NCBI GenBank assembly: GCA_034429215.1
Contig: DAOUGI010000126.1
Span: 49,213-113,212 of the forward strand
Direction of reading: 5' to 3'
Length of the DNA stretch: 64,000 nt
Source: Anaerolineae bacterium
Lineage (GTDB): Bacteria > Chloroflexota > Anaerolineae > JAAYZQ01
Numbering within the stretch: position 1 is the first letter of the stretch; the number at the start of each line of letters is the position of its first letter. Under the pieces are notes generated by a model. That model ran no database searches. It saw only the letters and a list, made by a program, of their open reading frames with translations, and was not told the origin of the DNA. Shown here one piece after another: positions 20 to 53,845 of this stretch. A program made the translations under genes and the position numbers.

Positions 20-838
20 ATGAGGTACAATAACGATATGCAGGTTGGCAAGCTCAAGGGCAAGGTCAGAACCAGGACCGGGTCACAACGCCAGGCTGGG
101 CGGTGGACGGGGAATGCGTTCCTGGCCGTGGGCGGGCTGCTGATCGCGGTAGCGGCGTTGTATGGGGCGTATGCTGTATTGACAAACTGGCTGATCGGGC
201 AGGATCGCTACCTGCTGGATGGCGGCATGGCCCGGCTGTCTGTGCCGGAACCGACGCTGACGCCGTCGCCCACGCCAACACCATCGCCTACACCGACGGC
301 TACCCCCCCCCCGACATCCACACCGACGCCCACGCCGATGCCTACCCCGGCGCCGCCGCCGTCGCCGGTGCAGATCCAGATCCCGGCCATCGGCGTCAAG
401 CGGTCGATCATTGCGCTGCCGAGCACTATCGACCGGGCGACCGGCGGCTGGACATGGGACACAAAAAAGCTGTTCCGCTCAGGCCGCAGCGACCTGGTAG
501 GCCATTCGCAGGGCTCGGCCTACCCCGGCCAGGAGGGGAATATGATCCTGGTCGGCCACAACTATGGCTATGGGTACAACGGAGTGTTTGTGTCGCTGGG
601 CCGGCTCAAGGCGGGCAACGAGGTAATCGTGGTCAACCAGCCAGGGCAGACATTCCGTTACCGGGTGACGACGGTGCAGCGGGTCAAGTGGCGCACGAAG
701 GATTTCGCCGAGCTCACGCAGCACCTGACTTTTCTGTCGCCCGGCGGGCCAGAGCGGGTAACGCTGGTGAGCTGCGCCGGGGCCGACGTGGAGCCATTCC
801 CGGAACGGGTATATGTGGTTGCAGAGCGGGTGCAGTAG
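20..838 (+). CDS. Sortase-family transpeptidase, membrane anchored with Pro/Thr-rich linker
   Basis: N-terminal TM helix (AFLAVGGLLIAVAALYGAYAVL). PT-rich linker. Catalytic His context LVGHNYG and Cys motif VTLVSCAG (TLxTC-like). Start is ambiguous: in-frame ATG at 20 and 38, and the ORF is open to the window edge. Confidence 0.8.
   Translation: MRYNNDMQVGKLKGKVRTRTGSQRQAGRWTGNAFLAVGGLLIAVAALYGAYAVLTNWLIGQDRYLLDGGMARLSVPEPTLTPSPTPTPSPTPTATPPPTSTPTPTPMPTPAPPPSPVQIQIPAIGVKRSIIALPSTIDRATGGWTWDTKKLFRSGRSDLVGHSQGSAYPGQEGNMILVGHNYGYGYNGVFVSLGRLKAGNEVIVVNQPGQTFRYRVTTVQRVKWRTKDFAELTQHLTFLSPGGPERVTLVSCAGADVEPFPERVYVVAERVQ
248..367 (+). repeat. Low-complexity Pro/Thr/Ser-rich linker coding region inside the sortase gene
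   Basis: Translation is EPTLTPSPTPTPSPTPTATPPPTSTPTPTPMPTPAPPPSP, from ACN/CCN codon reiteration. Confidence 0.7.
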
Positions 839-871: not shown

Positions 872-2653
872 ATGATCGATCTCAAGGGAGTCCAAGTTCC
901 GGATCATTTTAACGGCATCGGGATGCACGATACGGCCGGCTCAGAGGTGGCGACCTTCTCCTATCAGGAAGCCAAGGCTCACGCCGGGGAGTTGCGCGAT
1001 CACGGCATCACGCTGTACAAGCTCTTTGGCGGGACGACGAAGGTGATGCGGGCCAAGGCCTACGTCGACTCGGGGATCACGACGGCAATGCGCTTTTGGG
1101 TGCTCACGCCATGGGGCCGGCCGCCGGCATCGTGGGTGACGCCCACCGACCAGATCAAGCAGTTCGCGGATGTGGGCGTGCAAATGTTCGAGCTGGGCTG
1201 GAACGAATTCAATATTTCTGCCGAGTGGCCTGACGAGCAGATCCCCGCCGATCCGGCCAAGATCGCCCGCGTCGTAGTAGATGCCTGGGAGGTAGGCCTG
1301 GCCGCCTGCGCCGGCGTTCCCGGCGCCATTCCGCTGTTTCCAAGCAATACGCCGGGGGGAAATGTAGATCACCGGCTGTGCTATCAGGCGATCGTGGCCG
1401 AGCTGCAAAATCGCGGGCTGCTGGATACGGTCCGGCACGTGGCCTGTCACCCGCGGCCGCATAACAATCCGCCCAACACCCAGTGGACGGCAACCAATAC
1501 AGTCACGTTCGATGAGTGGCGGTGGGTCCGGGACCAGTTCGACAACGGCTGTTATCTGTGGGCGACAGAGCATGGCTACAGCTTGAAGGACGATCAGAAT
1601 CACGACTATCCGCAGATCGACCTGAGCATGTGGACCGAGTACAACTGGGACCTGTTCGTGCGGATGGATCCAAAACATGAGAGAGCGATCGAGCCCCAGC
1701 TTGCCGGGGTGATGTATTGGGTCGAGCGAGGCTGGGGCCATTGGGGGGCCTGGGGCAAGGATGCGCTGGTCGATTCGCCCGTTCCGGAGATGCCGGCGCC
1801 ATCGCCGCTGTGGATACGCATGGGCGAGCGCAAGGACGAGCTGGCGTTCAGCCGGTGTGGTGAGGTCACGGCCCCGCCGGTCCAGCTACAGATCATCGAT
1901 CTGATCGAGGCGCTGCCGTGGCGGCCGAACACGTCACGCTGGCTCAAGCGCGACGGGTACGATTTCGTGGTAGTCCACCACACGGGGAACGATTATCCGG
2001 GCGAGACGCAGGAGGAGATGACCGCCGTCATCGAACGGATCAACGCGTTCGTCACCCGCTACTGGAGATGGCCGCGGATCGGCGACCATTTTGTGATCGA
2101 TCCGCAGGGACGGATCTACCAGGTGAACGACCTGCTGGACGTGGTATTTCACGCCGGCAAGGGCAACGCGCGCGGGGTGGGCGTCGACCTGCTGGGAGCG
2201 CTGCACCGCCACCCGCCGACCGAGGCACAGATCACCTCGCTGCGCCGGCTGCGGCAAAAGCTGAACGTTCCGGCCCGGCCCCACTTTGATTTCGTCAACA
2301 CGCAGTGCCCGGGGCGGGTGTGGTGGGCCGAAAAGGCCGAGCTGGTGAACACACCGATCGAGGATCCACCGAATGAGCCGCCCGAGACACCGTACGTGGT
2401 CGAGGTGACCCACCAGGCCGGCATACCGCTGATCGTCGGCGACTATCCGGTGCCCGGCAAGCTGCTGACGATCGAGGGCTTGGGCGGGAACAAGGTCACG
2501 GTCACGGCCGGCAGCAAGATAGAATGGGGCCAGGGCGGTTTCGAGGTGTATGCCATGCCGCCAGGTGCAGCCCACACGATCACGATCGAGGAAGCACAGT
2601 ACGCGGTGCAGGCAGGGGATGGGCTGACAGTTGTGGCGTGGAAACCGGTGTAA
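872..2653 (+). CDS. Protein with N-terminal TIM-barrel/glycosidase-like region and central N-acetylmuramoyl-L-alanine amidase (Amidase_2/PGRP) domain
   Basis: Amidase_2-type motifs: VVVHHTGNDY, HFVIDPQGRIYQV, FHAGKGNARGVGVDLLG, NTQCPG. ATG is preceded by GAAAGGAAC. It lies 34 nt downstream of the sortase gene. Confidence 0.7.
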   Translation: MIDLKGVQVPDHFNGIGMHDTAGSEVATFSYQEAKAHAGELRDHGITLYKLFGGTTKVMRAKAYVDSGITTAMRFWVLTPWGRPPASWVTPTDQIKQFADVGVQMFELGWNEFNISAEWPDEQIPADPAKIARVVVDAWEVGLAACAGVPGAIPLFPSNTPGGNVDHRLCYQAIVAELQNRGLLDTVRHVACHPRPHNNPPNTQWTATNTVTFDEWRWVRDQFDNGCYLWATEHGYSLKDDQNHDYPQIDLSMWTEYNWDLFVRMDPKHERAIEPQLAGVMYWVERGWGHWGAWGKDALVDSPVPEMPAPSPLWIRMGERKDELAFSRCGEVTAPPVQLQIIDLIEALPWRPNTSRWLKRDGYDFVVVHHTGNDYPGETQEEMTAVIERINAFVTRYWRWPRIGDHFVIDPQGRIYQVNDLLDVVFHAGKGNARGVGVDLLGALHRHPPTEAQITSLRRLRQKLNVPARPHFDFVNTQCPGRVWWAEKAELVNTPIEDPPNEPPETPYVVEVTHQAGIPLIVGDYPVPGKLLTIEGLGGNKVTVTAGSKIEWGQGGFEVYAMPPGAAHTITIEEAQYAVQAGDGLTVVAWKPV

Positions 2654-5341: not shown

Positions 5342-8300
5342 ATGAAAGCTAGAGCGTTACTTTCAATCCTGGCGTTACTGTCCCTGATCATGGTCGCTCT
5401 GCCGACCGCTGCGGCGCCCGGCGCCCCCGACCAAGGCGTCTGGACGTTGGGGCCGACCATGTGCTTTGACCTGACCCGCATCGACGCCGAGTACTCTCCG
5501 GCCGCCGGCAAGGTCTATATCCTGGGCGGCCGCTCCGGCACGACCACCGTGGGCAACATCTACGCCTTTAATCCGGCGACCGGCATCTGCTCCGACACCG
5601 GGGTCGTCATGCCCACTCCCATCTCCAACTATACCGTCAACCTGGTCAATGACGGCACCAACGAGCTGCTGTGCACCTTTGGTGGGCGGAACTCGGCCGG
5701 CGGCACGACCCTGGATGTCCAGTGCTACGACCCGATTGCCAACACCGCCGCAATCAAGACCACCCTGCCAGCCGCCTGGACCGGTTACACCCCAGGCGCC
5801 CAGGTGGTGGTCGACAACAAGGTCTACCTCTTTGGTGGGTTTAATAGCACCACTGCCCCCTACATGACCGCCCGCACCGAAAGGTATGACCCGGTGGCCA
5901 ATACCTTCACCCAGATAGGCGACCTGAACCTGGCCCGAGCCTATCTCCTGGCCGGCGTCGTAGACGGCAAGATCTATGCCTTTGGCGGTGATACCTTTGA
6001 CGGCGCAGCGCTGGTCGCCCAAACAATGGCCGAGGTGATGGCCGATCCGGCTGGCGCCGGGACGTGGGACGATGCAGCCGTGGCCGACCTGCCGATTGCC
6101 GGCGACGAAGGCCGCGCTTTTGCCTTTGACTCGGCCTCGCCCTACGAATTCGCCGGCCAGATCGTGCTGGCGACGATGGCCCAGTGGTCAGGCGCGTCGG
6201 CCGAGGTCGTCCTGTACGACGTGGCCACCAACACCTACGACACGACCTTCCCCGACCTGCTCAACGCCCGGCGCAACCATGCTGATGCCTTTATTCCGAC
6301 CTGCACCGGGGATCCGGCAGATGGACAGCCGGGCATGTGGATCTTTGGCGGCTATCTTACCGGTGACAACCCGCCCTACGCCCCAGCCGAGTATTATCCG
6401 CTAGAGTGCGCCGCCGGGCCGGCGGTGTACCTGTCACCTGCCTTCCAGCAAGATAGCGGCGCTCCCGGCACGGTGGTGACCTACGACCTGATGCTGACTA
6501 ACCAGACAGGGCAGGAGGACACCTTCGACATCGTCTACACCAACGTCTGGACGACGACCGGGCCGGTGACGGTGGGCCCAGTGCCCGACGAGGGCGAGCA
6601 GGCTTTTCAAGTGCAGGTGACGATCCCAGCCGATGCGCAGTGCGTCGACTCTGACCTGGCAGTAGTGACCGCCTGGGACTCGACAAGCACCTACAGCGAC
6701 ACAGCGGAGCTGTTGACAACTGTTGTGGGTGAGCTGGTGGGTGTTGTCAAAGACGCCCACACCGGCCTGCCGATCGAGAATGCGCGGGTATGGGTGGTAG
6801 GGGTGACCGATCCCACCTTCTACGTCGAGCAGCTGACCGACGCGGATGGTCTATACTCCTTCAAGCCAATCCCGGCCGGCGACTATTTGATCACGGCCGC
6901 GGCGTACGGCTACTATACCGTGCTCGATCAATCGCTCACGATCTCGACATGCACCGCCGTTACCCAGAATTTTGACCTGGATGCGTCGGACCCCGACCTC
7001 CTGCCCAAAGCTGTCAGCGTCAATGTGCCGCTAGACAGCTCCAGGATCTTTAACATGTCCCTGGACAACGACGGCACGGGCGACCTGCACTTCCACATCA
7101 CCGAACTCGAGGCTGTCACCGGCCTGTCGCCGAACAAGTCCGATGTAGACATGCCCAGCGGCGTCGATCCGCAGGTGTACGCCGATCTAAAGGCGTCGGC
7201 CGACGGAACAGGCCGGTTCGTGGTCTATCTGAAAGACCAGGCCGCCCTGGAGGCGGCGTTCAACATGGATGACTGGTCGGCGCGGGGACAGTATGTGCTC
7301 GACACGCTGAGGGCAACCGCGCAGCGCAGCCAGGCCGGCCTCTTGGCCGCCCTGGACGGCGCCGGGGTCGACTACGAGTCGCGCTACATCGTCAATGCAG
7401 TAGTGGTTACGGGCAACGCAGGGTTGGTGGACAGCATCGCCGCCCGGCCGGAGGTAGGGTTCATCGGGCCCGACGCCAAGATCCCGGCCCCCAAGCCGGT
7501 GGACAGCAGCGCGGCTCCCGACAGCCCGGAAGTGATCGAGTGGAACATCAAGATGATCCTGGCCGACTCGGTGTGGACCGACTTTGGCGTGACCGGGCAG
7601 GGCATCGTCCTGGCGAACATCGACACGGGCGTGCAATACGACCACCCAGCGCTGGTGCAGCAGTACCGCGGCAACCTGGGCGGCGGCTCATTCGACCACA
7701 ACTATAACTGGTTCGACCCGTACGAGCAGTGCCCGTCGAGCGGCACGGTCCCGTGCGACCCAGGCGGCCACGGCTCGCATACCATGGGCACCATGGTGGG
7801 CAGCGACGATCCCACCAGCCCGATCTCGGCCACCAACGCCATCGGCGTGGCGCCCGGCGCCAAGTGGATAGCCTGCAAGGGCGGCGACGAGGTCAGCGGC
7901 TACCTGCTCAATGCCGAGCTGATCGAGTGCGCCGAGTGGATCCTGGCCCCGTGGGACCTGACCGGGGCCAACCCAGACCCAGCCATGCGGCCCGACGCGG
8001 TGAACAACTCGTGGGGCGGCGGCCAGGCGCAGTGGTGGTACAACCAGGCGATCTATGCCTGGCGGGCGGCGGGCATCTGGCCGTCCTTCTCCAACGGCAA
8101 CGACGGACCGAGCTGCGGCACGGCGGGCGATCCGGGCGAGATGGACAACGCCATCTCGGCCGGCGCAACGTCCAGCACCGACCTAATCGCCAGTTTCTCC
8201 AGCCGCGGCCCGGCGTCGGTGACCGGCCTCATCAAGCCGGACGTGTCGGCGCCCGGCGCGAACGTCCGCTCGTCGGTGCCGACCGACGGCTACGCCAACT

Positions 8301-8764
8301 ATAGCGGCACGTCGATGGCCAGCCCGCACGTGGCGGCCACGGCAGGGTTGATCTGGTCGGCGGTGCCGGAGCTGCGCGGCAACGTGCAGGTCACCGAGTG
8401 GATCATGGAGCAGACGGCCGACGTCAAGCTGGACAACCAGTGCGATACCAACGGAGTGCCGAACAACGTGTACGGTTGGGGGCGGATCAACGCCTACAAC
8501 GCGGTGGATTACGCCCTGGCCAACGTGTGGGACATGCCGTGGTTGACGGTCGATCCGGTCAACGGCGTGGTCGAGCCGAGTGCGACAGAAACGATCGCGC
8601 TGACCTTCGACGCGACAGGGCTGACCATCGGCGAGTGCTACAACGCCCGGCTCAAGGTAGAGTACAACGATCCGTACATCGTCGAGGAGTATATCCCGGT
8701 CGAGATGTGCGTGGTAGAGGCATTCCGCTACTATCTGCCGATCATCACCAAGGCCTACCCATAG
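5342..8764 (+). CDS. Secreted multidomain subtilisin-like serine peptidase (Kelch-type repeats + CarboxypepD_reg-like + internal I9-like propeptide + S8 domain)
   Basis: Signal peptide MKARALLSILALLSLIMVALPTAAAP. Repeated YxxGG Kelch-like motifs. S8 triad contexts LANIDTGV (Asp), GHGSHTMGT (His) and SGTSMASPHVA (Ser). C-terminal tail FRYYLPIITKAYP. Confidence 0.88.
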   Translation: MKARALLSILALLSLIMVALPTAAAPGAPDQGVWTLGPTMCFDLTRIDAEYSPAAGKVYILGGRSGTTTVGNIYAFNPATGICSDTGVVMPTPISNYTVNLVNDGTNELLCTFGGRNSAGGTTLDVQCYDPIANTAAIKTTLPAAWTGYTPGAQVVVDNKVYLFGGFNSTTAPYMTARTERYDPVANTFTQIGDLNLARAYLLAGVVDGKIYAFGGDTFDGAALVAQTMAEVMADPAGAGTWDDAAVADLPIAGDEGRAFAFDSASPYEFAGQIVLATMAQWSGASAEVVLYDVATNTYDTTFPDLLNARRNHADAFIPTCTGDPADGQPGMWIFGGYLTGDNPPYAPAEYYPLECAAGPAVYLSPAFQQDSGAPGTVVTYDLMLTNQTGQEDTFDIVYTNVWTTTGPVTVGPVPDEGEQAFQVQVTIPADAQCVDSDLAVVTAWDSTSTYSDTAELLTTVVGELVGVVKDAHTGLPIENARVWVVGVTDPTFYVEQLTDADGLYSFKPIPAGDYLITAAAYGYYTVLDQSLTISTCTAVTQNFDLDASDPDLLPKAVSVNVPLDSSRIFNMSLDNDGTGDLHFHITELEAVTGLSPNKSDVDMPSGVDPQVYADLKASADGTGRFVVYLKDQAALEAAFNMDDWSARGQYVLDTLRATAQRSQAGLLAALDGAGVDYESRYIVNAVVVTGNAGLVDSIAARPEVGFIGPDAKIPAPKPVDSSAAPDSPEVIEWNIKMILADSVWTDFGVTGQGIVLANIDTGVQYDHPALVQQYRGNLGGGSFDHNYNWFDPYEQCPSSGTVPCDPGGHGSHTMGTMVGSDDPTSPISATNAIGVAPGAKWIACKGGDEVSGYLLNAELIECAEWILAPWDLTGANPDPAMRPDAVNNSWGGGQAQWWYNQAIYAWRAAGIWPSFSNGNDGPSCGTAGDPGEMDNAISAGATSSTDLIASFSSRGPASVTGLIKPDVSAPGANVRSSVPTDGYANYSGTSMASPHVAATAGLIWSAVPELRGNVQVTEWIMEQTADVKLDNQCDTNGVPNNVYGWGRINAYNAVDYALANVWDMPWLTVDPVNGVVEPSATETIALTFDATGLTIGECYNARLKVEYNDPYIVEEYIPVEMCVVEAFRYYLPIITKAYP

Positions 8765-8790
8765 ACGGATAGGCTTATCAGAAGCACAAC

Positions 8791-8820
8791 GAGGGCCGGC
8801 GGGATACCCCGCCGGCCCTC
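8791..8820 (+). terminator. GC-rich hairpin downstream of the S8 peptidase gene
   Basis: GAGGGCCGGCGGG-atac-CCCGCCGGCCCTC, a perfect 13-bp stem. There is no T-run. Confidence 0.55.
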
Positions 8821-8871
8821 GACGTTGCCGGGCAAAGGGGCAATTCTGCAAATGGGGTGATTCGCCTTTAC

Positions 8872-8900
8872 TTGACAACACGCTGTTAGCCACGTATAAT
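8872..8900 (+). promoter_or_regulatory. Perfect-consensus sigma70 promoter TTGACA-17-TATAAT
   Basis: Counted directly. It sits about 255 nt upstream of the ATG at 9162, so a long leader is implied. Confidence 0.6.
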
Positions 8901-9161
8901 GGCTTCACCACGACATCCAACCGCCATCCACACCACCGCTTGACGTGACGGAGAGGCGGCGAGCCTCGCCAATTCGACTCCACCGGTAGATCTGCATTCA
9001 CGTGTCGGGACAGGCAGTCCGCTTGCTGCACAGAGCAGAAAGGAGGCAAACGCGCACAAGAGAACCCGGGGTTGTTTCGTGTGGGGATGATCGATCATAG
9101 AGATATGGCCGGCTGTGCGGCCCTGGTGAGGGCCGGACCGGACCGGAGAAAGGAGTCTCAC

Positions 9162-11351
9162 ATGAGAACGGGCAAGCTACTAGTCTTTGTAGTCATTGTG
9201 GCCTTGGCAATGGGCATGTGGGCGGTCATCGCCGCCGCCGCCCCCGCCGGGTCGGAGACTGACACGAGGGCGGCCATCGCCGAAAAACCGCCGCTCTCGA
9301 CCACCTCACCTGCGCGCCCGCTGGGCAAAGTAAAGCCGGCGGCGCATCCCGAGGCCGTGCTGTGGGATCAGCCGATCAGCACCAACGGCTATGGGGGCGT
9401 GTCCGGCTACAACACCAGCGGACTATTTGGCGCCTATAGTGCCGACGACTTTCAGAACGCCCTCCCATGGGCCATCGGCACCATCTTTGTCGACGGCTTT
9501 GATCAGGCCGCCAACCTGCTCCGGGCCACCTCGCTGACCTGGTACATCTACCCCGATGCTGCCGGTGTGCCGGCCGGCTACCCCGGCGATGGTTCGGGCG
9601 CCGAGATCTGGAGTCTATCCCTGCCGCCTACCGATCCGGCCGTCACCATCGGGCTGGGCGGCCACCAGGACGTCACCCTAAACGTGGCCCTGGCCACCGG
9701 CGGGCCGCTCAACCTGCCGCCCGGCTACTACTGGCTGGTCTTCTACCCCTCCCTCGACTGGGCTCCCGGCCTATACTATTGGTACTTTGCCGGCACGGCG
9801 AACCTGAGCCATCCCCAGATCATCGACCCGACCGACTACTTTGGCGCGGGCTTTACCAGTTGGACCGACTGGACCCTCATCGACCCGACCTACACCGACA
9901 TGGCCTTCCGCCTGGAGGGGGAAGTGGCATCGCCCATCGTATGGGACAAGTATATAGACAGTGAGCCGTGGACGCCGGGCATGACGATCACCCGCCAGAC
10001 CTCGGACACGATCACGGTCCAGGAGGTGCTGCACCTGTCGCCGCCGCCGCAGGCGCGCGCGGCAGAGACGGTGAGTGGCGCGCAGCCGCCGCAGCAGGTG
10101 CTGCCGGCGAGTCGGGTTGGCCAGTCGTATGCCGACGGCGTTGCCGGCGCCGGGCCGTCGCCGGCGCCCCCCCAGGCTGCCCTGACCGCGATCCCGCCGC
10201 CGCCCGGCGCCATCGTGATCAACTTTGACGATGTGGCGGCGCCCTGTAGCTTTGACCAGACAACGGCCCTCCGCGACCAATACGCCGGGCTGGGAGTGCT
10301 GTTTATGGGCCCGGCGGCGAATGACGGCGGCGGCGTCCTCGACCAGTGCGGCAACTTTGGCGTCAGCGGCCACAGCCCGCCCAACTTCCTGGCTTTCAAC
10401 GCGGGCTCGGCCTTCAGCAATGGCGGCATCCCACGGCCGCCTGAGACGATCACGTTCATCAATGGCGCCAGTTACGTCCAGGTCAACGCCGGATCCTACG
10501 GCGGTGCGGGCCAGATCGTCACGATGGAAGCGTTCGACGCCGCAGGCAGCTCCCTGGGAAGCGACAGCCTGACCCTGGCCTCCACCCTCGATACCCTCAG
10601 CATCACCGCCGACGAAATCGCCTGGGTTGTGATTAACACACCGGCGGGGGTCCTTGTACTGGACGACCTGGCCTTCTTACCCCCGACCGTGCCGACCTTT
10701 ATCCAGATCGAGACCTGGGACCCGGCCCACCTCCGCCTGCTCGACTGGGCGGCCACCGGCGGTGGAGTGATCGTCACGCCCGGACGGGTGGAGTGGACCG
10801 GCGAGATCGTCGCCCCGACGACCATCACCCTGACCAAGTGGTTTCACGTCGAGCCGTGCACCTGGACCGAGACGGTGCTGTGGGAGGAGCTGTGGCTGGA
10901 TGGGGTGGAGCTGGAGCAGCGGCCGGTGGTTGTCAACAAGCTGCCGCCGGCGCTGTGGATCGACGCCCTCTATGAGACGTCAGTGTATGCCGGCGCGCCG
11001 GCCAACTTTACCCTGACCTACGGCAACACCGGAGGGTTTGACAACGAGGTGTGGATCCGCAACGACTTTCCACCGGTTGCGCCGTTCGCCGGCTCGGTCC
11101 CGCCGCCGACCAACGTCGATCCCGGCGGCCTGTGGGCCGAGTGGAACCTCGGCGGCCTGCCACAGGGCGCGGCGGGCAACATCGACGTGACGGTGATGGT
11201 CCAGCCCGGCCTGCCGCCGTCGACCACCATCGAGATCTGGGACGGGATCTTGGACCACACCGGCGAGCTGCGCGACTGGGTGCTGATCATCTTCCACGTC
11301 CCCCACCGGACCCATCTGCCGCTGGTGTTCAAGGGTTACGGGCACCCGTAA
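9162..11351 (+). CDS. Secreted protein of unknown function with C-terminal DUF11-like domain
   Basis: The ATG at 9162 is preceded by AAAGGAG. Signal peptide MRTGKLLVFVVIVALAMGMWAVIAAAAPA. DUF11-like stretch ANFTLTYGNTGG...NIDVTVMV. C-terminal tail HRTHLPLVFKGYGHP. The ORF-track start at 9072 is unlikely. Confidence 0.7.
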   Translation: MRTGKLLVFVVIVALAMGMWAVIAAAAPAGSETDTRAAIAEKPPLSTTSPARPLGKVKPAAHPEAVLWDQPISTNGYGGVSGYNTSGLFGAYSADDFQNALPWAIGTIFVDGFDQAANLLRATSLTWYIYPDAAGVPAGYPGDGSGAEIWSLSLPPTDPAVTIGLGGHQDVTLNVALATGGPLNLPPGYYWLVFYPSLDWAPGLYYWYFAGTANLSHPQIIDPTDYFGAGFTSWTDWTLIDPTYTDMAFRLEGEVASPIVWDKYIDSEPWTPGMTITRQTSDTITVQEVLHLSPPPQARAAETVSGAQPPQQVLPASRVGQSYADGVAGAGPSPAPPQAALTAIPPPPGAIVINFDDVAAPCSFDQTTALRDQYAGLGVLFMGPAANDGGGVLDQCGNFGVSGHSPPNFLAFNAGSAFSNGGIPRPPETITFINGASYVQVNAGSYGGAGQIVTMEAFDAAGSSLGSDSLTLASTLDTLSITADEIAWVVINTPAGVLVLDDLAFLPPTVPTFIQIETWDPAHLRLLDWAATGGGVIVTPGRVEWTGEIVAPTTITLTKWFHVEPCTWTETVLWEELWLDGVELEQRPVVVNKLPPALWIDALYETSVYAGAPANFTLTYGNTGGFDNEVWIRNDFPPVAPFAGSVPPPTNVDPGGLWAEWNLGGLPQGAAGNIDVTVMVQPGLPPSTTIEIWDGILDHTGELRDWVLIIFHVPHRTHLPLVFKGYGHP

Positions 11352-12666: not shown

Positions 12667-15600
12667 TTATTCCACGATCACGCGGTCACTGCCGCTCCGG
12701 CCAAAGACCTCGGGCGAGTACATCTCCTCGGCCTTGGCCGGGGGCACGACAAAGGTTCCCGGCGTGGTGGCCCGGGCGATGTAGGTATAGTCGTACACGC
12801 CCTCCCACAGCAGCGCGGCAAAGGCCTCGGCGCGCTCGTCGCGCATGTTCTGGTGCTCGTACCAGGTGCCCCACCACCACCAGCCATAGCGATAATCGGG
12901 CGAGCTGGGGTCCTGCGGGACGTCGCCCGACACGGCCAGGGCCGGGTTGACGATCTCTAGCCCGGCGGGCAGCGGATCGACCAGGGCCACGTGGTAGCGG
13001 CGGTTGTCGGCCACCATTTTCAGCCGGACGCGCACCCTCGCCCCGGCCTTGATGTGCCACACACCCTGCTCGTCGCGGGTCACGTCGGCCGGGTCGTCCA
13101 CCGCCTCGTAGCTGCGCTGGACCACAAAGCCCATATCCACCGGGTCGAGGGTCAGGTCGGTGGGCGCGTAGCGCAGCCCCAGCCGGTAGTAGAGCCGCCC
13201 GGGCCCCTCCTTGCTGACGATCAGGTCCTGCGCCGACCCCAGCGAGGCCAGGTAGGACATGGGGACGCCGGATTCGTGCCGCTCGGTGGTCCGGCCCTGG
13301 TAGGCGTGCTCGCCGACGTAGGTATCGCCCAGCCAGATGCGGGCCACAAAGTCGGGCGTCTGGGATTCAAAGGTGTCAAAGTAGCGGTCGAGCGCCAGCA
13401 GGACAAAGACATTCTCCTGGGTGTTGTCCCAGCGGCCCTGCTTGCGGTGGGCCAGCAGGCCGTTGACCACTTTGGGGATCAGGTCGCTGTCCGGCTCGGC
13501 GGCGATCAGCGCATCCAGAATGATGGCGTCGGTGCGCCGGTCCGAGCGGAGCAGGAGGTAAGCATGGTCGCTGTAGGCCGTGGTGAAATTGGCCGCGCCG
13601 GCCGTCTCTACAGCCCGGTTGGCGATGTGGCGGGCGATGGCCTCCACCTCGGCAGCAGAGCCGGAATCGTCGAGCATCACCTGCCACAACCAGGCCGCCG
13701 CGTCAAGTGACAGCTTTTCCAGGCCGGCTGTGTTCAGCAGCTTCTTGGCCTTGGCCGCGTCGCCGTCGCCCATGAGGTGGCGTACATACAGCGCGTAAGC
13801 GCTGACCGTGTGGCGCGTGTCCTCGCCATACCAGGAGGGGTAATAGCCCTCGATCTGCCTCAAGTAGTCGAGGACGCGCGAGCGCATATCGGCCGGCACG
13901 GCAAAATCCATGCTCTCCGCCCGCTGCAGGGCGTGCGCCACGTGGACGGTGTTGAACGGGATCGACTCGCGGCGGCGGCTCCAGTAGGGGAACCCGCCAT
14001 CGTCGTTTTGCAGCACCTGGAGCCGCTCGATATCTCGCTTGACGGCGCTCTCCATCTCTTCCGGCGCGGGCAGCCCTTCCGCCGAAAAGGCCTGGAGCAC
14101 GTCGCGCAGGGCCGATATGGCCAGGATGCGCGATGCCAACTGCTCGGAACACTCGAAGCGGTAGGAGGTCAGGTAAAGGACGGCGTCGGTCAGCGCCTGG
14201 AGCGCGGTAGAGGAGGTGCTGATCTCCAGGCCGCCGAACTGGGTAAAGACATCATCGCCTACCGCGGCCAGCGGCTGGGCAATGGCCCCTTCGTCGACCA
14301 CGCCGTAGGTGGCAAACGCCTCGGTGGTGGCCGGGGTATAGACCGGCAGCTCCACCGTCGCGGCATCGGCAAACGACCCCGACACGGCGGCTACCTGGAA
14401 GCGGGCGGTGCCGGCCTGGATCGTGATTGCCGGGAAGCGGACCTCGACGCGGTCGCGGGCAGGAACGGTCACCCGCCGGCCCGCGCCGGCGGTCAGCTCC
14501 AGGTTGGTCGCCTGAAGCGCTACGTCGACGGTCAGTGGCTCGTCGGTCTGGTTCTGGACCACCACCGGCAGCTCGAGCTGATCGCCAAAGTTGAGAAAGC
14601 GCGGCGCCGAGGGCCTCACCATCAGCGGCAGCCTGGCGGTGAGGTTAGCCTCCCCCGAGCCAAAGTGGCTGCCGCCGGCGACGGCCACGACCATCACCCG
14701 GTAGCGGGTGAGGTTGTCGGGCAGCGTCACCTCCACCTGAGCCGCGCCGTTGGCATCGGTGCGCACTTTGGGGGCAAAGGTGGCCAGCGGGTTGAAATCG
14801 GTCCGCACCCGGATCGGCTTGGCCTCAGCAGCATCCTCCATCTCTTTCGCGGCGGAAGGGGCCGAAGTTGGTGCGGCCATCTGAAGCACCACGCTCTCCT
14901 CAACCGCCATAGTATCCGCCGCCCCAAGTAGGGCGACTTCGCGGTCCTGCGAGGCCAGGGCCTCGGGATTGGCCAAGATGATGCTGTCTCGGCCGTAACG
15001 GCTTTCCAGGTCGGCCGGACGCTCGGCGTAAAAGACGGCCAGGGGGTCGGCAAGCTGATAGCCGGTCAGGGCCAGGATCGCCTCGTCGACCACGACCACC
15101 GCCAGCTCCGCATCGGCCACCGGCCGGCCGTCGGGGCCGGTCAGCAGCAGGTCCAGCGTCGTCTGGCCGCCTGGCTCCAGCTCCTTTTCGCGCGGCGTCA
15201 CCTGGAGCTTTAGGGTGCGCTGCAGCGGCGGGATGCTCAGGCTGAGCTCGCCCCGCGCGTACGCCGGGCGGGGAGGCGCGCCCTCCACCGCCTCGCCCTG
15301 ATCGTCGGTGCGCGCTGCGGCGCCCACCAGGTCCACCTGGAGGTGGAGGTTGGGGATGTGCTTGTCTTCGATAGGCACGCTCAGAGTGACGGTGCCGTCT
15401 TCAACCCGGAAGCGCTCGGTGTACAGGATGCCGCTGCGGCTCACGGTCAGCAGCCCTTCGGCCGGGCTAAAGGGCGATTGGACCAGGACCTGGGCCACAT
15501 CGCCCGGCTGGTAGCTCTCCTTGTCGGGGATGAGGGTGACCTGTTCCTGCTCTACCTTGCGCGAGACCGGCTGCTGCCCGCCGCTCACCCAGCGGGTGAA

Positions 15601-18600
15601 CTGGCTCTGATTCTTGCGGCCCGACGAGTCGGTAACGGTGGCGGTGATCTGGTATTGGCCGCCCATCTCTGTTTTGAAAGTGCACGACACCGGCTCGGAG
15701 CCAGAGCCCACACTGCACTCCTGGACGTCGACCGCTTCCTGCTGCCAGGTGCCGCGCACGCTCCGCCACTCCATGCGGGCCGCCTGAACCTGGACCGGAC
15801 GGTCGGGCACGGGCGCGCCGTCCAGATCGGTTACGATGATGTCAATATCGAGCGGCTCACCACGCTGGACAAAGGTGCGGTCGCAGCGCAGCCCAACGTA
15901 CAGGTCGGCAGGGTGGACCAGCAGCGTCGTTGCCGCCGCCCACGCCTGGCGATTGACGTCCATGACGGTCGCCTCGGCCCGGATGCTCATCGGCTGGGGC
16001 TCGCCCTCCTGCTCGAAATCGAGCTGGAGAAAGTGGGTGCCCGAGGCATCGGTCACGCCCGAGAAGGTCTCTACCTTTGTCTCACCGCGATAAGGCGGGT
16101 AGTACCAATCCCGGTACCACCAAGGTTGCCAGCGGCCAAAGATGAAATCAGGCCAGTTTGGCGGCGAGTAGCTGCCGGGCGACGAGCTGACCTGCCAGGT
16201 TACCTCCGCGTTCGGTAGGGGACCGCCGGCATAGTAGGCAGCCTCGACTGCCACCGTGGCCGAGCCGCCAGAAGCGTGCGACACAGGGCCGCCGGCAAAG
16301 TAGGGGCCGGGGGTCTCGTTGCGGGCGGTGACTTCGAACTCGGGACGGCGGAACTCTTGGATCTGGAAGCTATGGCCATACTGCCAGCTGGTAGCCAGGT
16401 CGCCCAGGCTGCCCTGGGCGGTGAGCTCGATGGTGGCATAGCCCAGGTTGGCGTTGTTGGGCAGGGTAAAGGCCAGGTCAAAGCCGCCCAAGGCATTGGC
16501 CTCGGCCTGCCCGGTAGCCATTTCGTTGCCTTGGGAGCTGATGACCCGGTAGCTCACCGATTCGACCGGCACCAGGCCGACATCGCCGTCCTGCCGGCTG
16601 CCGACACGCCGCAGCCAACCCTTGACGTGCACCTCTTCACCCGGCCGGTAGATGCCGCGGTCGTCGAACACGTACCAGCGCAGCTCGTCTGACGCCGGCC
16701 TGGATTCCCAGGCCTCGTCGCTCCAGGCATAGGGCGACCGGGGCAGGATGGCCGTGTCGCTGCCCTTTTTCGCCACCAGCAGAACCGCGTTCCGCCCAGA
16801 CAGGTCCAGGCGGGCCGTGCCGTCCTCGCCGGTGACCGCCGCCCCACCGAAAGAGCCAACGCCTCCGCTCCGGTTCTGCCCCTCGATCGTCACGCCGGAC
16901 AGCGGGGCGCCATTCTGGAGGACGGTAGCCCACACCATCATCTGGCCGTGGTCGGCAAAGGCGTCAAGCCCGATGCGGGTTGCCTGCACCCAGACCTGGA
17001 CGGGTTGCCAGTAGCGGTCGCGATCGGGCAGCGGATCTGGCTCGACAATGACGATCAGATGTCCCAAACCGCCCTCCAGGGCCGAGCTCAGGTCGATGCT
17101 CACTTCGGTCAGTGCGTCGGTCGCTGCTTCCAGCGGCATGATCTTGTCGATCGCCGGCCGGCCAAGCGGCTCCGCCTGATAGCCCTGCCGGTAATAGTTC
17201 TCCAGGTAGGTCCTGAAACTGGGCCAGTCGGAAGGCTGCACCTGGTAGGCCCTCACCCTCAGATGTGTATAATTGATGGTATACACCGTCAGCACCGGCG
17301 TCTTGGAGGCCGGGTCCAGCGTGACAAAAGACTCTTCCGGGCCATAGAGAGCCGGCTCGGCCGAGCCGATCTTGAAGGTCAAGCTGGCATCTTGGCCCAG
17401 CGTCTGCCCAAAGATATCCTGCAGCGAGCCGCTGACCACAGCAGTGTAGGTGGTGAGACCCGTGGTGGCCCCATGGATCGTGATGGTGTTGCCAGAGACG
17501 TCGACCGTGGCGCCCGCGAGCGCCAGCTCGATGCGCAGCATCTTATCCTGGTAGACATCGGCGTCGAGCGGGTTGTTGAATTCGATGAACAGGGGAGCGA
17601 GCGGGCGGCAGTCATCCTGGTACCACGAGCAGCCGTGGCGCACGATGCGCAGCGGCGCGTAGGTGCTAAAGCCGTAGCTCTGCGCCTCCGTGCTGACCAG
17701 AGGTCCCTCGGCGGAGGGCGTGCCGGGGCCGACCATGACCGACACGGCGGCATCGGCCGGCAGGGGCTGTTCGGCCACAAAGGCCAGCCAGCGGCTCTCC
17801 TCGGCGCCATCGGCCGCGCGGCCGGCATCCTTGTCGGCAGCGAGATCGTCGGCCGTCGCCAGTCTGACCGGCGCCGGGCTACCACCGGCCGTCACCGCAA
17901 TCGTCTTGAGCACGGCCGCCGGATCGATCCGCTGATCAAAGACGACCAGGAACACCGGGCTCAGCGGCTGCGGGCTGCCGGAGGGTGGGTAGGAGGCGAT
18001 CATGCGCGGCGGAGGCGTGCTAAAGGTCCAGCGCACCTCCTCGGCCAGGACGCCGCCCGTAGCCGACCTGGTGCCGGCCGGGACGGTCGCCACATACTCG
18101 GTGGCCATCGGCAGGCGGTCGATCTGGGTCGAGTCGTATTCAAAGCTCAAGGTCTTGGTGCCGAGCCACTTCCAGGTGCCGGGCAGCGACGGTTCTAGCC
18201 GCACCGGCACGTCGGCGGCCGCGAGCGCCTCGAGGGTCGCCAGGGGCGCCATGGGCTGGTCAAAGGTGACGTTCAGGAACGGGGCCAGCGCGATCTGGCC
18301 CTCAGGGGCATAGCGCAGCACGTGCAGCGGGCCGGCGGCCGGGGGTTCGGGGACGACCACCGCCGCCGGTGGGGGAAAATCCTCCTCCACGGTCTGGCCG
18401 GGCCGGGGCGGCGGAGGAGAATCGGGCGGCAAGTGCAGCTCCATCTGCTCTCCGGGCTCGGCGGTCAGCTCGGGCAAACGGGCCAGGATGGCGGCGATTT
18501 CATCGTCCGACAAGGGCTCACCCTGAACCGGCGGCAGCGACTCAATAGCCTGCTGCCCCGCCTGGCCCTCGCTCAGCCGGATGAGGAGCTGCTCGCCGCC

Positions 18601-18831
18601 GCTCTCGGCCAGGCCGCCGCCCCAATAGCCGACCGAAACGGTCGACTCATAGCCGCTCGACGCGGCCGTGTCGACCAGGGCCGGGTAGGTGGCGCCCTGC
18701 ACCTCAGTGGCGTGCGGGCGCCGCGCCACCAAGATAACGGCTGTCACCGCGACCGCCAGCAGCACAACCGCGCCGGCGGCAATGAGCAGAAACCGCCGGC
18801 TGCGGATCGTTTCCTTCCAGTTTTTGGCCAT
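12667..18831 (-). CDS. Bacterial alpha-2-macroglobulin family protein with thioester motif, N-terminal TM anchor
   Basis: 2054 aa. N-terminal TM helix (FLLIAAGAVVLLAVAVTAVILVA). Ig-like/MG domain repeats. CxEQ thioester motif RFECSEQLAS, coded at 14140-14151. A2M receptor-binding-like C-terminus. Confidence 0.85.
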   Translation of the reverse strand: MAKNWKETIRSRRFLLIAAGAVVLLAVAVTAVILVARRPHATEVQGATYPALVDTAASSGYESTVSVGYWGGGLAESGGEQLLIRLSEGQAGQQAIESLPPVQGEPLSDDEIAAILARLPELTAEPGEQMELHLPPDSPPPPRPGQTVEEDFPPPAAVVVPEPPAAGPLHVLRYAPEGQIALAPFLNVTFDQPMAPLATLEALAAADVPVRLEPSLPGTWKWLGTKTLSFEYDSTQIDRLPMATEYVATVPAGTRSATGGVLAEEVRWTFSTPPPRMIASYPPSGSPQPLSPVFLVVFDQRIDPAAVLKTIAVTAGGSPAPVRLATADDLAADKDAGRAADGAEESRWLAFVAEQPLPADAAVSVMVGPGTPSAEGPLVSTEAQSYGFSTYAPLRIVRHGCSWYQDDCRPLAPLFIEFNNPLDADVYQDKMLRIELALAGATVDVSGNTITIHGATTGLTTYTAVVSGSLQDIFGQTLGQDASLTFKIGSAEPALYGPEESFVTLDPASKTPVLTVYTINYTHLRVRAYQVQPSDWPSFRTYLENYYRQGYQAEPLGRPAIDKIMPLEAATDALTEVSIDLSSALEGGLGHLIVIVEPDPLPDRDRYWQPVQVWVQATRIGLDAFADHGQMMVWATVLQNGAPLSGVTIEGQNRSGGVGSFGGAAVTGEDGTARLDLSGRNAVLLVAKKGSDTAILPRSPYAWSDEAWESRPASDELRWYVFDDRGIYRPGEEVHVKGWLRRVGSRQDGDVGLVPVESVSYRVISSQGNEMATGQAEANALGGFDLAFTLPNNANLGYATIELTAQGSLGDLATSWQYGHSFQIQEFRRPEFEVTARNETPGPYFAGGPVSHASGGSATVAVEAAYYAGGPLPNAEVTWQVSSSPGSYSPPNWPDFIFGRWQPWWYRDWYYPPYRGETKVETFSGVTDASGTHFLQLDFEQEGEPQPMSIRAEATVMDVNRQAWAAATTLLVHPADLYVGLRCDRTFVQRGEPLDIDIIVTDLDGAPVPDRPVQVQAARMEWRSVRGTWQQEAVDVQECSVGSGSEPVSCTFKTEMGGQYQITATVTDSSGRKNQSQFTRWVSGGQQPVSRKVEQEQVTLIPDKESYQPGDVAQVLVQSPFSPAEGLLTVSRSGILYTERFRVEDGTVTLSVPIEDKHIPNLHLQVDLVGAAARTDDQGEAVEGAPPRPAYARGELSLSIPPLQRTLKLQVTPREKELEPGGQTTLDLLLTGPDGRPVADAELAVVVVDEAILALTGYQLADPLAVFYAERPADLESRYGRDSIILANPEALASQDREVALLGAADTMAVEESVVLQMAAPTSAPSAAKEMEDAAEAKPIRVRTDFNPLATFAPKVRTDANGAAQVEVTLPDNLTRYRVMVVAVAGGSHFGSGEANLTARLPLMVRPSAPRFLNFGDQLELPVVVQNQTDEPLTVDVALQATNLELTAGAGRRVTVPARDRVEVRFPAITIQAGTARFQVAAVSGSFADAATVELPVYTPATTEAFATYGVVDEGAIAQPLAAVGDDVFTQFGGLEISTSSTALQALTDAVLYLTSYRFECSEQLASRILAISALRDVLQAFSAEGLPAPEEMESAVKRDIERLQVLQNDDGGFPYWSRRRESIPFNTVHVAHALQRAESMDFAVPADMRSRVLDYLRQIEGYYPSWYGEDTRHTVSAYALYVRHLMGDGDAAKAKKLLNTAGLEKLSLDAAAWLWQVMLDDSGSAAEVEAIARHIANRAVETAGAANFTTAYSDHAYLLLRSDRRTDAIILDALIAAEPDSDLIPKVVNGLLAHRKQGRWDNTQENVFVLLALDRYFDTFESQTPDFVARIWLGDTYVGEHAYQGRTTERHESGVPMSYLASLGSAQDLIVSKEGPGRLYYRLGLRYAPTDLTLDPVDMGFVVQRSYEAVDDPADVTRDEQGVWHIKAGARVRVRLKMVADNRRYHVALVDPLPAGLEIVNPALAVSGDVPQDPSSPDYRYGWWWWGTWYEHQNMRDERAEAFAALLWEGVYDYTYIARATTPGTFVVPPAKAEEMYSPEVFGRSGSDRVIVE

Positions 18832-38766: not shown

Positions 38767-39267
38767 ATGTTTTGTCCAGCGTGTGGTGCACCAAATGAAG
38801 AGGGAACTGCATTCTGCGGGAACTGTGGCGCGGCATTGAGCGCCGATGCCATTCCGCCCGCCGAAGAGGCGCCGCTGCAAAGCGACGCACCGGAGGAGGT
38901 GGCGCTGATGATCCCGCCCCCACCCCCGCCGCCAGAGCCGCCGGGACCTTCCGTCAGGGCGGTGGGATCTCCCGTGCCGACCAACGGCATGGCCATCGCC
39001 TCACTGATCCTGGGCATCGCCGGGCTGACGGTGGTGCCGACGATCGGGAGTGTGCTGGCCTTGATCCTTGGCTATATGGGCAAGCGCGACATCCGCCAAC
39101 GCCCAACCGAGACGACGGGCGAAGGGCTGGCCACCGCCGGCATCGTGATGGGCTGGATCGGGATAGTGCTGACCGTGTTGGTCGCGTGCGGTCTCATCGC
39201 CTGGTTCAGCATCTGCGCCCTCGCGTCCAGCGGTGCGACGTACGAGTCATTCCTGCTAGTGCCATAG
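38767..39267 (+). CDS. Zinc-ribbon + Pro-rich linker + DUF4190-like membrane domain protein
   Basis: MFCPACGAPNEEGTAFCGNCG, PPPPPPPEPPGP, then NGMAIASLILGIAGL. Confidence 0.6.
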   Translation: MFCPACGAPNEEGTAFCGNCGAALSADAIPPAEEAPLQSDAPEEVALMIPPPPPPPEPPGPSVRAVGSPVPTNGMAIASLILGIAGLTVVPTIGSVLALILGYMGKRDIRQRPTETTGEGLATAGIVMGWIGIVLTVLVACGLIAWFSICALASSGATYESFLLVP

Positions 39268-39277
39268 GAACCAGACC

Positions 39278-52051: not shown

Positions 52052-53845
52052 ATGGAATCAAAGGGGTTGTTCCAGCTTGTAGTGACCCTGGCGCTGCTGG
52101 CAGCGCTCGGGGGGGTTGTGCTCGCTTCTGCCGCCACCGCCTATCCAGATCCAGGTGGAGCCGCACCGATTACACCCGGCCACGGGGCATCCGCTGCCCA
52201 GGCGGAAGCGCCTGCAACAGGCAGGGCGCAGGGCAGACCATTCGGCGAGGCTATCATTGTCGACCACTCCAGCACGGATATCACGGCGGTGCCGCAGGAG
52301 TGGATAGAGGAGGCCAAGCTCGAGCTTCACATCGCGTACGGGCATACTTCTCACGGCGGCCAACTGACAAGCGGGATGGCCGACTTGATCGGCTTTGCCA
52401 ACAATGGGGGCCTGGGGCTCGCACTTCCCTACAACATTTTTGATTTCAACAGCGGCGGAACGAACGGGGCGCTGGATCTGCGCGAGCCTTTTGCGGGTGA
52501 CGCCGGCTATTACCCTCAGTGGGTAGACGAGACCACAACGTATCTCGGCCTTCCCGATCCCGATACGGGCCGGGGAACGAACAACCCTGATATAAACGTC
52601 GTGATCTGGTCGTGGTGCGGCCAGGTATCAGGGTACACCGAACAGCAGATGCTGGACCAATATCTGCTGCCGATGACCCAGTTGGAGGCGGACTATTACG
52701 GCATTACCTTTGTGTATATGACCGGCCACTCGGACGGGTCGGGCGAAGAGGGGAACCTGCACCTGCGCAACCAGCAGATCAGGAATTACTGCGCAGCGAA
52801 CGGCAAGGTGCTGTACGATTTCTATCACATTGAGATGTACGATCCGGATGAGAGCTATTTCGGCGACAAGGCGGTCAACGACAACTGCGACTATGATTCT
52901 GACGGCGACGGCACACGCGACAGGAACTGGGCTATAGACTGGCAGGGCGCGCACGATGTGGGCGTTGATTGGTACGATTGCAGTTGCGCTCACAGCCAGG
53001 CGCTGAACTGCAATCAGAAGGCCTATGCGGTCTGGTGGCTGTGGGCGCGGCTGGCAGGATGGAACGGCGGCCAGGAGGGCGGATCGCAAAAGGCGGCCTC
53101 AACCGCGGTGGCGGACCACGGCCAGACCTTTACCTACACGATCACCGTTCGAGACACCGGCGCACCTGTCACTGCCACCGTGTACCTGACCGACGAGGTG
53201 CCCGCGGGGCTCGTGTATGTACCCGGCACGATAACCGCCACGACCGGCATTGCCACCGACGCCGATGCTCCCATCCTGCGCTGGGCTGGGGTCCTGAGCC
53301 CCACTTCCGTGGCGACGGTGACCTTTGGCGTCGTCGTGGAGACCCCTGAGCCCCAGGTGATCACCAACAGCGCCGTTATCGCCTCGCCGGGATACGAGCC
53401 GATTACGGTGACGGCCGTTATCACCACGGTGAACAGCGATCTGCCGGACCTGAGCCCGTCGCACAAGGCGGCCAATCGATTCAGCGGCGAGTATGGCGAC
53501 TGGATCACCTACACCGTCAAGATCTGCAACGCTCCGGGGCCGTTATACGACACAGTGTGGCTTACCGACACGGTCCCAGACGGCCTGATGTATGTATCGG
53601 GGACACTGACGAGCACGGCCGGCGTCGTTTCCGACGCCGCGGCCCCGGCTCTGTACTGGTCGGGTGACCTGGCTCCCTCGCCGTGTGTCACGATTGGCTA
53701 TGCGGTCACCGTGACGGCGCTTTCGCCCCAGGCCATCGCCAACAACGCCATCATCGCCATGTGGGGCCATGCACCGATCACCCGCACGGTCACGATCCTC
53801 GTGAATCCTCGCAGGCTGTTCCTGCCCGTGGTTGTCAAGGAGTGA
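52052..53845 (+). CDS. Secreted protein: unknown Cys/Asp-rich N-terminal domain + two DUF11 repeats
   Basis: Signal peptide MESKGLFQLVVTLALLAALGGVVLASAATA. DUF11 units FTYTITVRDTG...LTDEVPAGLVYVPGT and ITYTVKICNAPG...LTDTVPDGLMYVSGT. C-terminal tail RRLFLPVVVKE. Confidence 0.7.
   Translation: MESKGLFQLVVTLALLAALGGVVLASAATAYPDPGGAAPITPGHGASAAQAEAPATGRAQGRPFGEAIIVDHSSTDITAVPQEWIEEAKLELHIAYGHTSHGGQLTSGMADLIGFANNGGLGLALPYNIFDFNSGGTNGALDLREPFAGDAGYYPQWVDETTTYLGLPDPDTGRGTNNPDINVVIWSWCGQVSGYTEQQMLDQYLLPMTQLEADYYGITFVYMTGHSDGSGEEGNLHLRNQQIRNYCAANGKVLYDFYHIEMYDPDESYFGDKAVNDNCDYDSDGDGTRDRNWAIDWQGAHDVGVDWYDCSCAHSQALNCNQKAYAVWWLWARLAGWNGGQEGGSQKAASTAVADHGQTFTYTITVRDTGAPVTATVYLTDEVPAGLVYVPGTITATTGIATDADAPILRWAGVLSPTSVATVTFGVVVETPEPQVITNSAVIASPGYEPITVTAVITTVNSDLPDLSPSHKAANRFSGEYGDWITYTVKICNAPGPLYDTVWLTDTVPDGLMYVSGTLTSTAGVVSDAAAPALYWSGDLAPSPCVTIGYAVTVTALSPQAIANNAIIAMWGHAPITRTVTILVNPRRLFLPVVVKE

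Follow-up and report, generated by a model that had tools for sequence, protein, structure and literature searches.

A 64,000-nucleotide stretch of the genome of an Anaerolineae bacterium (Chloroflexota; GenBank assembly GCA_034429215.1, contig DAOUGI010000126.1, positions 49,213 to 113,212 of the forward strand), which we call the window and always mean at its full length, poses the question of why three secreted proteins of unrelated architecture, an S8 peptidase, a 729-residue protein encoded beside it and a DUF11 protein, end in almost the same few residues, and whether this ending determines where the proteins go. A first reading of the DNA letters (hereafter the sequence-only reading) had noticed the likeness and proposed a distinct C-terminal tag for sorting, processing or attachment. 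Here we report that the three tails are peripheral, degenerate members of a motif family that has already been curated, the YLP-box, and we infer from comparative evidence that they probably act as a C-terminal sorting or retention tag.

Three secreted proteins with the same C-terminal tail

Read in frame, the S8/Kelch peptidase ends in ...EAFRYYLPIITKAYP, the 729-residue protein in ...VPHRTHLPLVFKGYGHP and the DUF11 protein in ...NPRRLFLPVVVKE (also given as ...PRRLFLPVVVKE), each directly before its stop codon and in exact agreement with the letters and positions first reported (Table 1). The residue before L-P is Y, H and F, respectively, and the K is followed by 1, 3 or 5 residues. The carriers had been described as signal-peptide proteins of unrelated architecture, and all three indeed have typical Sec/signal peptidase I (SPase-I)-type signal peptides. 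The 729-residue protein gave no Pfam or NCBIfam domain match; stretches of its sequence are also found in proteins with PKD, InhA or Kelch domains, and it may be a mosaic of uncharacterised surface domains. For the DUF11 protein, the ATG at 52052 is the likely start, rather than the first in-frame GTG at 51983.

How often would such endings arise by chance? The regular expression proposed in the sequence-only reading has six matches in the six frames of the window, three of which are the tails themselves, 1–5 residues before the stop of long open reading frames (ORFs). Given the amino-acid composition of the window's ~77 likely genes, the expectation is ~0.002 such C-termini among those genes, and the Poisson probability of three or more is ~1e-9. 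In the long six-frame ORFs of the window and all fetched loci, ~1.0 M residues in total, a sharper motif ends 0–5 residues before a stop in 20 of its 26 matches, compared with 0.34 expected, a count that overstates independence as detailed below. No YLP tail was found in 110 kb of control Clostridia loci.

The tail also appears confined to exported proteins, as the sequence-only reading had suggested should be checked by comparing secreted with cytoplasmic proteins. All 18 tagged ORFs have a signal-peptide-like N-terminus, as against 140 of 577 untagged likely genes (24%) scored with the same crude heuristic. A class with the YLP-box near the N-terminus behind a signal peptide was not found, and internal matches to the loose core lie mostly in transmembrane (TM) segments. 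One string of this kind, SVYLPNVMWN, stands ~50 residues from the N-terminus of a 282-residue secreted protein without known domain (L122:6942-7790, +), lacks the K/R and is probably a coincidence.

Peripheral membership of a curated motif family

NCBIfam release 20 contains two models named "YLP-box putative sorting motif-containing protein", NF050076 (sort_motif_YLP; 11 positions, cutoff 15 bits) and NF053834 (ultrashort_CTERM; 10 positions, cutoff 10), as well as a proposed partner enzyme, NF053836 (sortase_YLP, 'putative sortase'; cutoff 125 bits). The tag is thus not of a new kind, which the sequence-only reading had considered possible; the window instead contributes three members of the YLP-box family, two of which the curated models miss. 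The curated motif and the window tails share the basic-x-x-Y-L-P-L-V-x-K/R core and the extreme C-terminal location, and differ in that the Y may be H or F in the window and that I-I-T can stand in place of L-V-x. Accordingly, the DUF11 tail aligns over all 11 positions of NF050076 and scores 13.2 bits (cutoff 15), while the S8 and 729-residue tails gave no reported match to NF050076 or NF053834. Relatives of the same proteins are more canonical. The tail of an S8 orthologue with 83% identity (P0296) reaches 13.1 bits on NF053834 (cutoff 10), two 729-residue orthologues score 15.6 bits on NF050076 (HRTYLPLVCKGFSP; cutoff 15) and 13.6 bits on NF053834 (YIYLPVVYKNFVAHP; cutoff 10), and the orthologue or co-family tails that pass the curated cutoffs include those of P0002 (17.1/16.1 bits), P0005 (15.6), P0011 (16.3), P0301 (14.0) and P0362 (18.6/16.8). 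As a control, none of 10 untagged C-termini of the window matches either model. Our literature search found no publication that describes the YLP-box, and nothing relevant on class F sortases of Chloroflexi or on Anaerolineae sortases. In the curators' 2023 preprint all recognised small sorting signals are tripartite, and YLP is not mentioned (bioRxiv 10.1101/2023.06.07.544157).

Consensus, conservation and predicted structure

Comparison of 42 distinct tails gives the consensus Φ-Y-L-P-[LVI]-[VIL]-Φ-[K/R], followed by 0–7 residues and the end of the protein, with position counts Φ-Y(33)-L(37)-P(42)-[L26 V6 I6]-[V19 I13 L5]-Φ-[K20 R15]. The residue preceding L-P (Y in 33 of the 42) is the most informative position after the P itself, and R or Y is enriched two to three residues upstream of the core.

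The tail is conserved in orthologues of all three window proteins. A strict form ([YFWH][LI]P[LIVMA][LIVMFYCTA].[KR] with at most 10 residues behind it) closes 80 of the 120 best S8 peptidase relatives, and most of the others have degenerate forms; the same expression matches internally only once in 138,428 residues of these relatives. The closest metagenomic S8 orthologues end in ...YIPLLFK. Relatives of the 729-residue protein end in ...RTYLPLVCKGFSP, ...YIYLPVVYKNFVAHP and ...CVYLPLIVKNYTP, and its partial homologues of PKD or Kelch architecture in ...KLYLPLVMKNH, ...RIYLPIVTGGD and ...GIYLPLTIK, while relatives that keep the DUF11 part close with RIYLPLILR, RFYLPLVLKEQ, AYLPLIMKEN and similar strings. 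Relatives of the window proteins are labelled Anaerolineae, Anaerolineales or Chloroflexota. Internal copies are rare exceptions to the C-terminal rule: a phospholipase-D-like protein (L049:3928-7308, -) has, where two domains meet, an internal YLP-box, AIYLPMVFKEHQTP, behind which comes a lamin-tail-like domain of 187 residues, and in P0247 the string IYLPLVMRNF is followed by 18 more residues.

The AlphaFold2 (AF2) model of the S8 protein has a mean predicted local distance difference test (pLDDT) score of 78, with the last strand at residues 1115–1125 and residues 1130–1140 as coil with pLDDT <50; in the model of the 729-residue protein only the C-terminal β-sandwich (593–716) is confident (pLDDT 84–95), and residues 717–729 are again coil with pLDDT <50. 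The tail is therefore predicted to be an unstructured linear extension beyond the last β-sandwich domain, outside the fold in both models.

These observations bear on the trivial explanation that the resemblance reflects chance, compositional bias or a final strand that belongs to one homologous domain common to the proteins. Such an origin would fit the shortness of the motif and the scores of two of the window's three tails, which lie under the curated hidden Markov model (HMM) thresholds; however, the low chance expectation, the empty control loci, conservation across three unrelated families, and a position behind different domain types (PKD, DUF11, Kelch, S8-associated and unannotated) and outside the folded domain in both models make it extremely unlikely. 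What the data support is a module in its own right, a genuine and autonomous C-terminal element carried by Sec-secreted proteins whose architectures are unrelated.

Carriers comprise S8, M28 and C11 peptidases and PLD-like, PKD, Kelch and DUF11 proteins. Since proteases (S8, M28, C11) make up most of those found, the tail could be a processing or turnover signal. As such it would be a pro-peptide junction or be recognised by a secreted or a tail-specific protease, for which the tagged S8 peptidases themselves are possible candidates, and it would control maturation or degradation. The tandem tagged pairs of the window, L052, L062, L065 and L092 and the nature of the tail, a hydrophobic, exposed C-terminal peptide, are compatible with this idea. 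The protease bias, however, is partly a sampling artefact because the query was an S8 protein, and non-protease carriers exist (PKD, Kelch, DUF11 and PLD-like proteins and the 729-residue protein). In addition, homologues hold sorting or anchoring modules rather than pro-peptides in the same slot, and what follows the K/R is too short and variable for a pro-domain. We therefore consider a processing signal very unlikely, if less so than chance resemblance.

A probable role in sorting or retention

What points to sorting is the position that the tail occupies in the DUF11 protein. The N-terminal domain of this protein (~280 residues; residues ~60–345, window 52229–53086, +) has no Pfam or PDB match, and an exhaustive search with the full-length protein found 4611 relatives at E<=1e-3. 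Among the matches listed, most are to this domain, a widespread, uncharacterised secreted domain. In other lineages its homologues have C-termini that are PEP-CTERM-like, a type IX secretion system (T9SS)-type domain, a TM plus basic anchor, or dockerin-like; its closest relatives have a YLP-box in that same C-terminal slot. This slot equivalence is the strongest comparative argument for a sorting function. Moreover, the cargo, large exo-hydrolases and adhesin-like proteins, is the usual clientele of surface-sorting systems, and the variable stub of 0–7 residues after the K/R behaves like a leaving group.

The YLP-box is an 'ultrashort' C-terminal tag, seen in Anaerolineae (Chloroflexota) on many hydrolases and adhesin-like proteins of the Sec route. 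In the model that we favour, the tagged protein would be exported via Sec and lose its signal peptide, a dedicated extracytoplasmic enzyme or receptor would then recognise the exposed tail, and the protein would as a result be kept on the cell envelope rather than lost to the medium. The leading version is that of the NCBIfam curators, in which a sortase-family transpeptidase (NF053836) would cleave within or just after the L-P core, with the [K/R] and the few residues behind it as the leaving group. The earlier proposal of a sorting, processing or attachment tag is thus upheld with regard to the C-terminal position, the restriction to secreted proteins, the conservation and the occupation of a sorting-signal slot, while sorting, cleavage or attachment as such is what we infer from these properties.

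Several points weigh against a sorting role. Two of the three window tails are too degenerate for the curated models, and the literature search brought up neither experiments nor publications that show the YLP-box to act in sorting, cleavage or attachment. The tagged samples are related families and the loci were partly chosen via tagged families, so that the counts given above overstate independence. The well-studied small C-terminal sorting signals are all tripartite and include a TM helix by which the substrate stays at the membrane (bioRxiv 10.1101/2023.06.07.544157), and a tag that lacks such a helix has no obvious means of holding a soluble protein near a membrane-bound enzyme. Finally, the search for an NF053836 member gave none in the window or the 10 kb upstream, among six paralogous Chloroflexota sortases or near any tagged gene. 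The best NF053836 score in the accessible source sequence (~74 kb) and those six sortases was 16.8 bits, compared with the cutoff of 125; one Clostridia sortase that we also tested is not a member, and an HMM scan of all ORFs in the ~1.4 Mb of fetched DNA gave none either, the weak matches all being shadow ORFs as judged by eye. Beside tagged genes (L037–L041, L042–L121) there is no recurring partner gene, the neighbours being housekeeping genes, and no sortase-like gene lies near the tagged genes elsewhere, away from the window and the sortase neighbourhoods described below.

The lack of a partner enzyme near any tagged gene is also what would be expected under the main rival explanation, in which the tail is not cleaved and instead serves as a short linear docking peptide that binds non-covalently to a component of the envelope, such as the S-layer, the sheath or a peptidoglycan-associated receptor, and thereby keeps exoenzymes at the surface of the filament. 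A tail that is predicted to be unstructured and exposed in two models, and that no TM helix keeps near a membrane enzyme, would suit such a role, and the internal copy in L049 and the P0247 copy with its 18 additional residues fit binding more easily than C-terminal transpeptidation. On the other hand, a binding peptide could sit in any exposed linker and would not need the near-absolute C-terminal position seen here (80 vs. 1 internal), the variable 0–7 residues after the K/R are more like a leaving group, and the profiling by the curators, the basis of which could not be inspected, pointed to a sortase-family partner. On balance we regard docking as unlikely, although it deserves more weight than any other competitor of the sorting tag.

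Two further ways of attaching or recognising the tail are disfavoured. In Lpp-like attachment via a C-terminal lysine, the lysine would be the nucleophile, and this role is unlikely because K and R interchange at the basic position (20 vs. 15); PDZ-type recognition of the free carboxylate is hard to reconcile with the 0–7 variable residues behind the motif.

A bolder and more tentative possibility, to which we give clearly less than even credence, is that the YLP-box is a working sorting signal of a new architecture, a linear tag of ~10 residues without TM helix or Arg cluster that fixes dozens of Sec-exported hydrolases to the envelope or sheath of filamentous Anaerolineae, and that the enzyme or receptor is not one of the class-F-like, LPPxTG-specific sortases and perhaps no sortase at all. 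If true, this would go against the 'tripartite' rule, to which all characterised small C-terminal sorting signals conform. Those of prokaryotes that have been studied by experiment, LPXTG, PEP-CTERM, PGF-CTERM, GlyGly-CTERM and MYXO-CTERM, all rely on a TM helix that holds the substrate at a membrane enzyme; for a TM-less tag of 10 residues that marks a considerable part of the proteases and adhesin-like proteins secreted by Anaerolineae, the substrates would have to be captured in some other way. Anaerolineae are a major, poorly cultured environmental class, and recognition of the tag, including degenerate forms such as the two of the window's three that the curated models miss, should improve prediction of the surface-retained exoproteome in metagenome-assembled genomes (MAGs) of Chloroflexota. 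The YLP-box also offers a defined peptide for biochemical tests.

The window sortase and its own client

The sequence-only reading had placed a sortase gene at the left end of the window and noted that canonical substrate features are absent from the tails. The gene is real: its product scores 75 bits on PF04203 (cutoff 26.6), and the triad H186 (LVGHN), C258 (TLVSC) and R269 is invariant in 27 sequences. It is a divergent, class-F-like enzyme. Class F (NF033748) is the best-scoring class, albeit with 54 bits at a cutoff of 166, some relatives carry the NCBI name 'class F sortase', and solved sortases are only remotely similar. On the YLP sortase model NF053836 it scores 12.8 bits (E 0.083; cutoff 125) and is not a member.

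This sortase has a client of its own. Upstream of the window lies the gene for a 204-residue, Cys-rich secreted protein that ends in ...HAGLPPGTGIDLPAPVVVGGLAFLGVAFLGVGIVVRRRTK, which comprises LPPGTG, a TM helix and RRR; the protein matches no NCBIfam or Pfam model. In at least nine related loci (L003, L005, L006, L008–L013), in addition to the source genome, the genes follow the order LPPxTG protein, TPR/cNMP-binding protein, sortase, and paralogous sortases have adjacent clients with PPDTG, PPESG or VPPDTG. The LPPxTG protein and the sortase thus look like an uncurated, dedicated sortase-substrate pair of Anaerolineae.

Could the same sortase nonetheless act on the YLP-box as well, recognising its L-P core, cutting the tail and joining the proteins to the cell wall, besides serving its LPPxTG client? 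The L-P dipeptide is common to both motifs, the catalytic triad is intact, and the enzyme is encoded 4.5 kb from two tagged genes in the window and, in L005, 2.4 kb from an S8/PKD gene with the tag. In every case that could be checked (the window, L005 and DAOUHB01, the last via L012 and L037), this sortase family also shares a contig or MAG with the tag, and a shared contig is suggested for P0009, P0035 and P0299 (513,607 nt) and for P0042 and P0301 (74,851 nt), but the sample holds only positive genomes and hence does not discriminate. Against this possibility, a syntenic client with full LPPxTG, TM helix and RRR is typical of a dedicated pair, the T-G conserved in such clients is absent from the YLP-box, and the curators' separate model for the YLP sortase rejects this enzyme by a wide margin. 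Furthermore, the sortase neighbourhoods of other genomes (323 kb) contain only one further tagged gene, and the order sortase-purB-nitrilase-tagged S8 is absent in L003, L014 and L017. We consider such a dual role improbable. The window sortase is a poor candidate because it is not an NF053836 member and is part of a conserved module with its own LPPxTG-TM-RRR client; it is probably not the YLP-box enzyme and serves a different, conventional substrate. The nearest sortase should therefore not be assumed to be the partner of a tag.

Directly after the sortase gene, a 593-residue Amidase_2 (N-acetylmuramoyl-L-alanine amidase) protein without signal peptide is encoded (window 872–2653, +). It has no homologue in any other sortase locus, so that the gene appears to be an insertion specific to this genome. 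The product of the ORF at 39260–39844 was considered as a classical sortase substrate and ruled out, as it is a multi-pass membrane protein.

Comparison with known sorting systems

How does the YLP-box compare with established signals? Like the LPXTG signals of sortase classes A–F, it is C-terminal on signal-peptide surface proteins, has an L-P dipeptide and occurs on paralogous carriers with unrelated domains. Unlike them, it has [VIL]-Φ rather than T-G at positions 4-5 after L-P, so that it falls outside the definition of the class, and it lacks both the hydrophobic helix of ~20 residues and the Arg cluster, with only 0–7 residues after a single K/R. The LPPGTG protein beside the window sortase is a genuine example in which both features are present. 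The statement in the sequence-only reading that the tail is unlike LPXTG, PEP-CTERM and GlyGly-CTERM is borne out by the same features.

The pairs PEP-CTERM/exosortase, PGF-CTERM/archaeosortase, GlyGly-CTERM/rhombosortase and MYXO-CTERM/myxosortase are similar to the YLP-box in being lineage-restricted, short C-terminal tags on many secreted proteins per genome, and the N-terminal domain of the DUF11 protein has homologues in which a PEP-CTERM-like end fills this slot. In each of these signals a signature motif is combined with a TM helix and an Arg cluster, and the enzymes that cut them are intramembrane or membrane-embedded (bioRxiv 10.1101/2023.06.07.544157), whereas the YLP-box has no TM segment. 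The T9SS C-terminal domain of Bacteroidota, which also shares the slot, is a TM-less sorting element on signal-peptide hydrolases and adhesins, but it is folded, about 80–100 residues long and works across the outer membrane, compared with about 10 residues, predicted to be unstructured, for the YLP-box. The host phylum of the YLP-box is generally regarded as being without a classical outer membrane. Finally, the attachment of Braun lipoprotein by L,D-transpeptidases via its C-terminal Lys offers a parallel in that an envelope protein has a conserved basic residue as its C-terminus or close to it, and an L,D-transpeptidase-like gene is present in the window (23825–25189, -); in the YLP-box, however, 20 of the 42 distinct tails have K at the basic position and 15 have R, and this position is often not the last one.

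Feature positions and other genes

Table 1. Positions of the YLP-box tails, their carrier genes and the sortase module. Plain numbers are window positions; the prefix L denotes other fetched loci.
Feature	Position	Strand	Details
Membrane-anchored sortase, divergent, class-F-like	20..838	+	N-terminal TM segment, Pro/Thr linker, catalytic domain
LPPGTG client gene	L122:7846-8460	-	~1.5-2.2 kb upstream of window position 1
TPR/cNMP-binding protein gene	L122:8571-9902	-	between LPPGTG client and sortase
S8 carrier gene	5342..8764	+	1140-residue secreted Kelch / CarboxypepD_reg / S8 peptidase; signal peptide MKARALLSILALLSLIMVALPTAAAP
S8 peptidase YLP-box tail	8723..8761	+	FRYYLPIITKAYP; core YLPIITK 8732-8752; stop 8762-8764
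729-residue carrier gene	9162..11351	+	secreted product; signal peptide MRTGKLLVFVVIVALAMGMWAVIAAAAP
729-residue protein tail, degenerate YLP-box	11304..11348	+	HRTHLPLVFKGYGHP; core HLPLVFK 11313-11333; H in place of Y
DUF11 carrier gene	52052..53845	+	597-residue secreted protein, unannotated N-terminal domain and two DUF11 repeats; signal peptide MESKGLFQLVVTLALLAALGGVVLASAATA
DUF11 protein YLP-box tail	53810..53842	+	RRLFLPVVVKE; core FLPVVVK 53819-53839
Tandem tagged pairs	window 5342-11351; L052:1343-10724; L062; L065; L092:987-9471		

The tandem pairs of Table 1 are encoded on the same strand and combine an S8 peptidase with a second tagged protein (e.g. S8/Kelch or M28/PKD). Further into the window, a 2054-residue alpha-2-macroglobulin-like protein with an N-terminal membrane anchor is encoded at 12667–18831 (-), and the L,D-transpeptidase-like gene mentioned above encodes, as read from the sequence by eye, apparent TPR-like repeats followed by a YkuD-like L,D-transpeptidase C-terminus.

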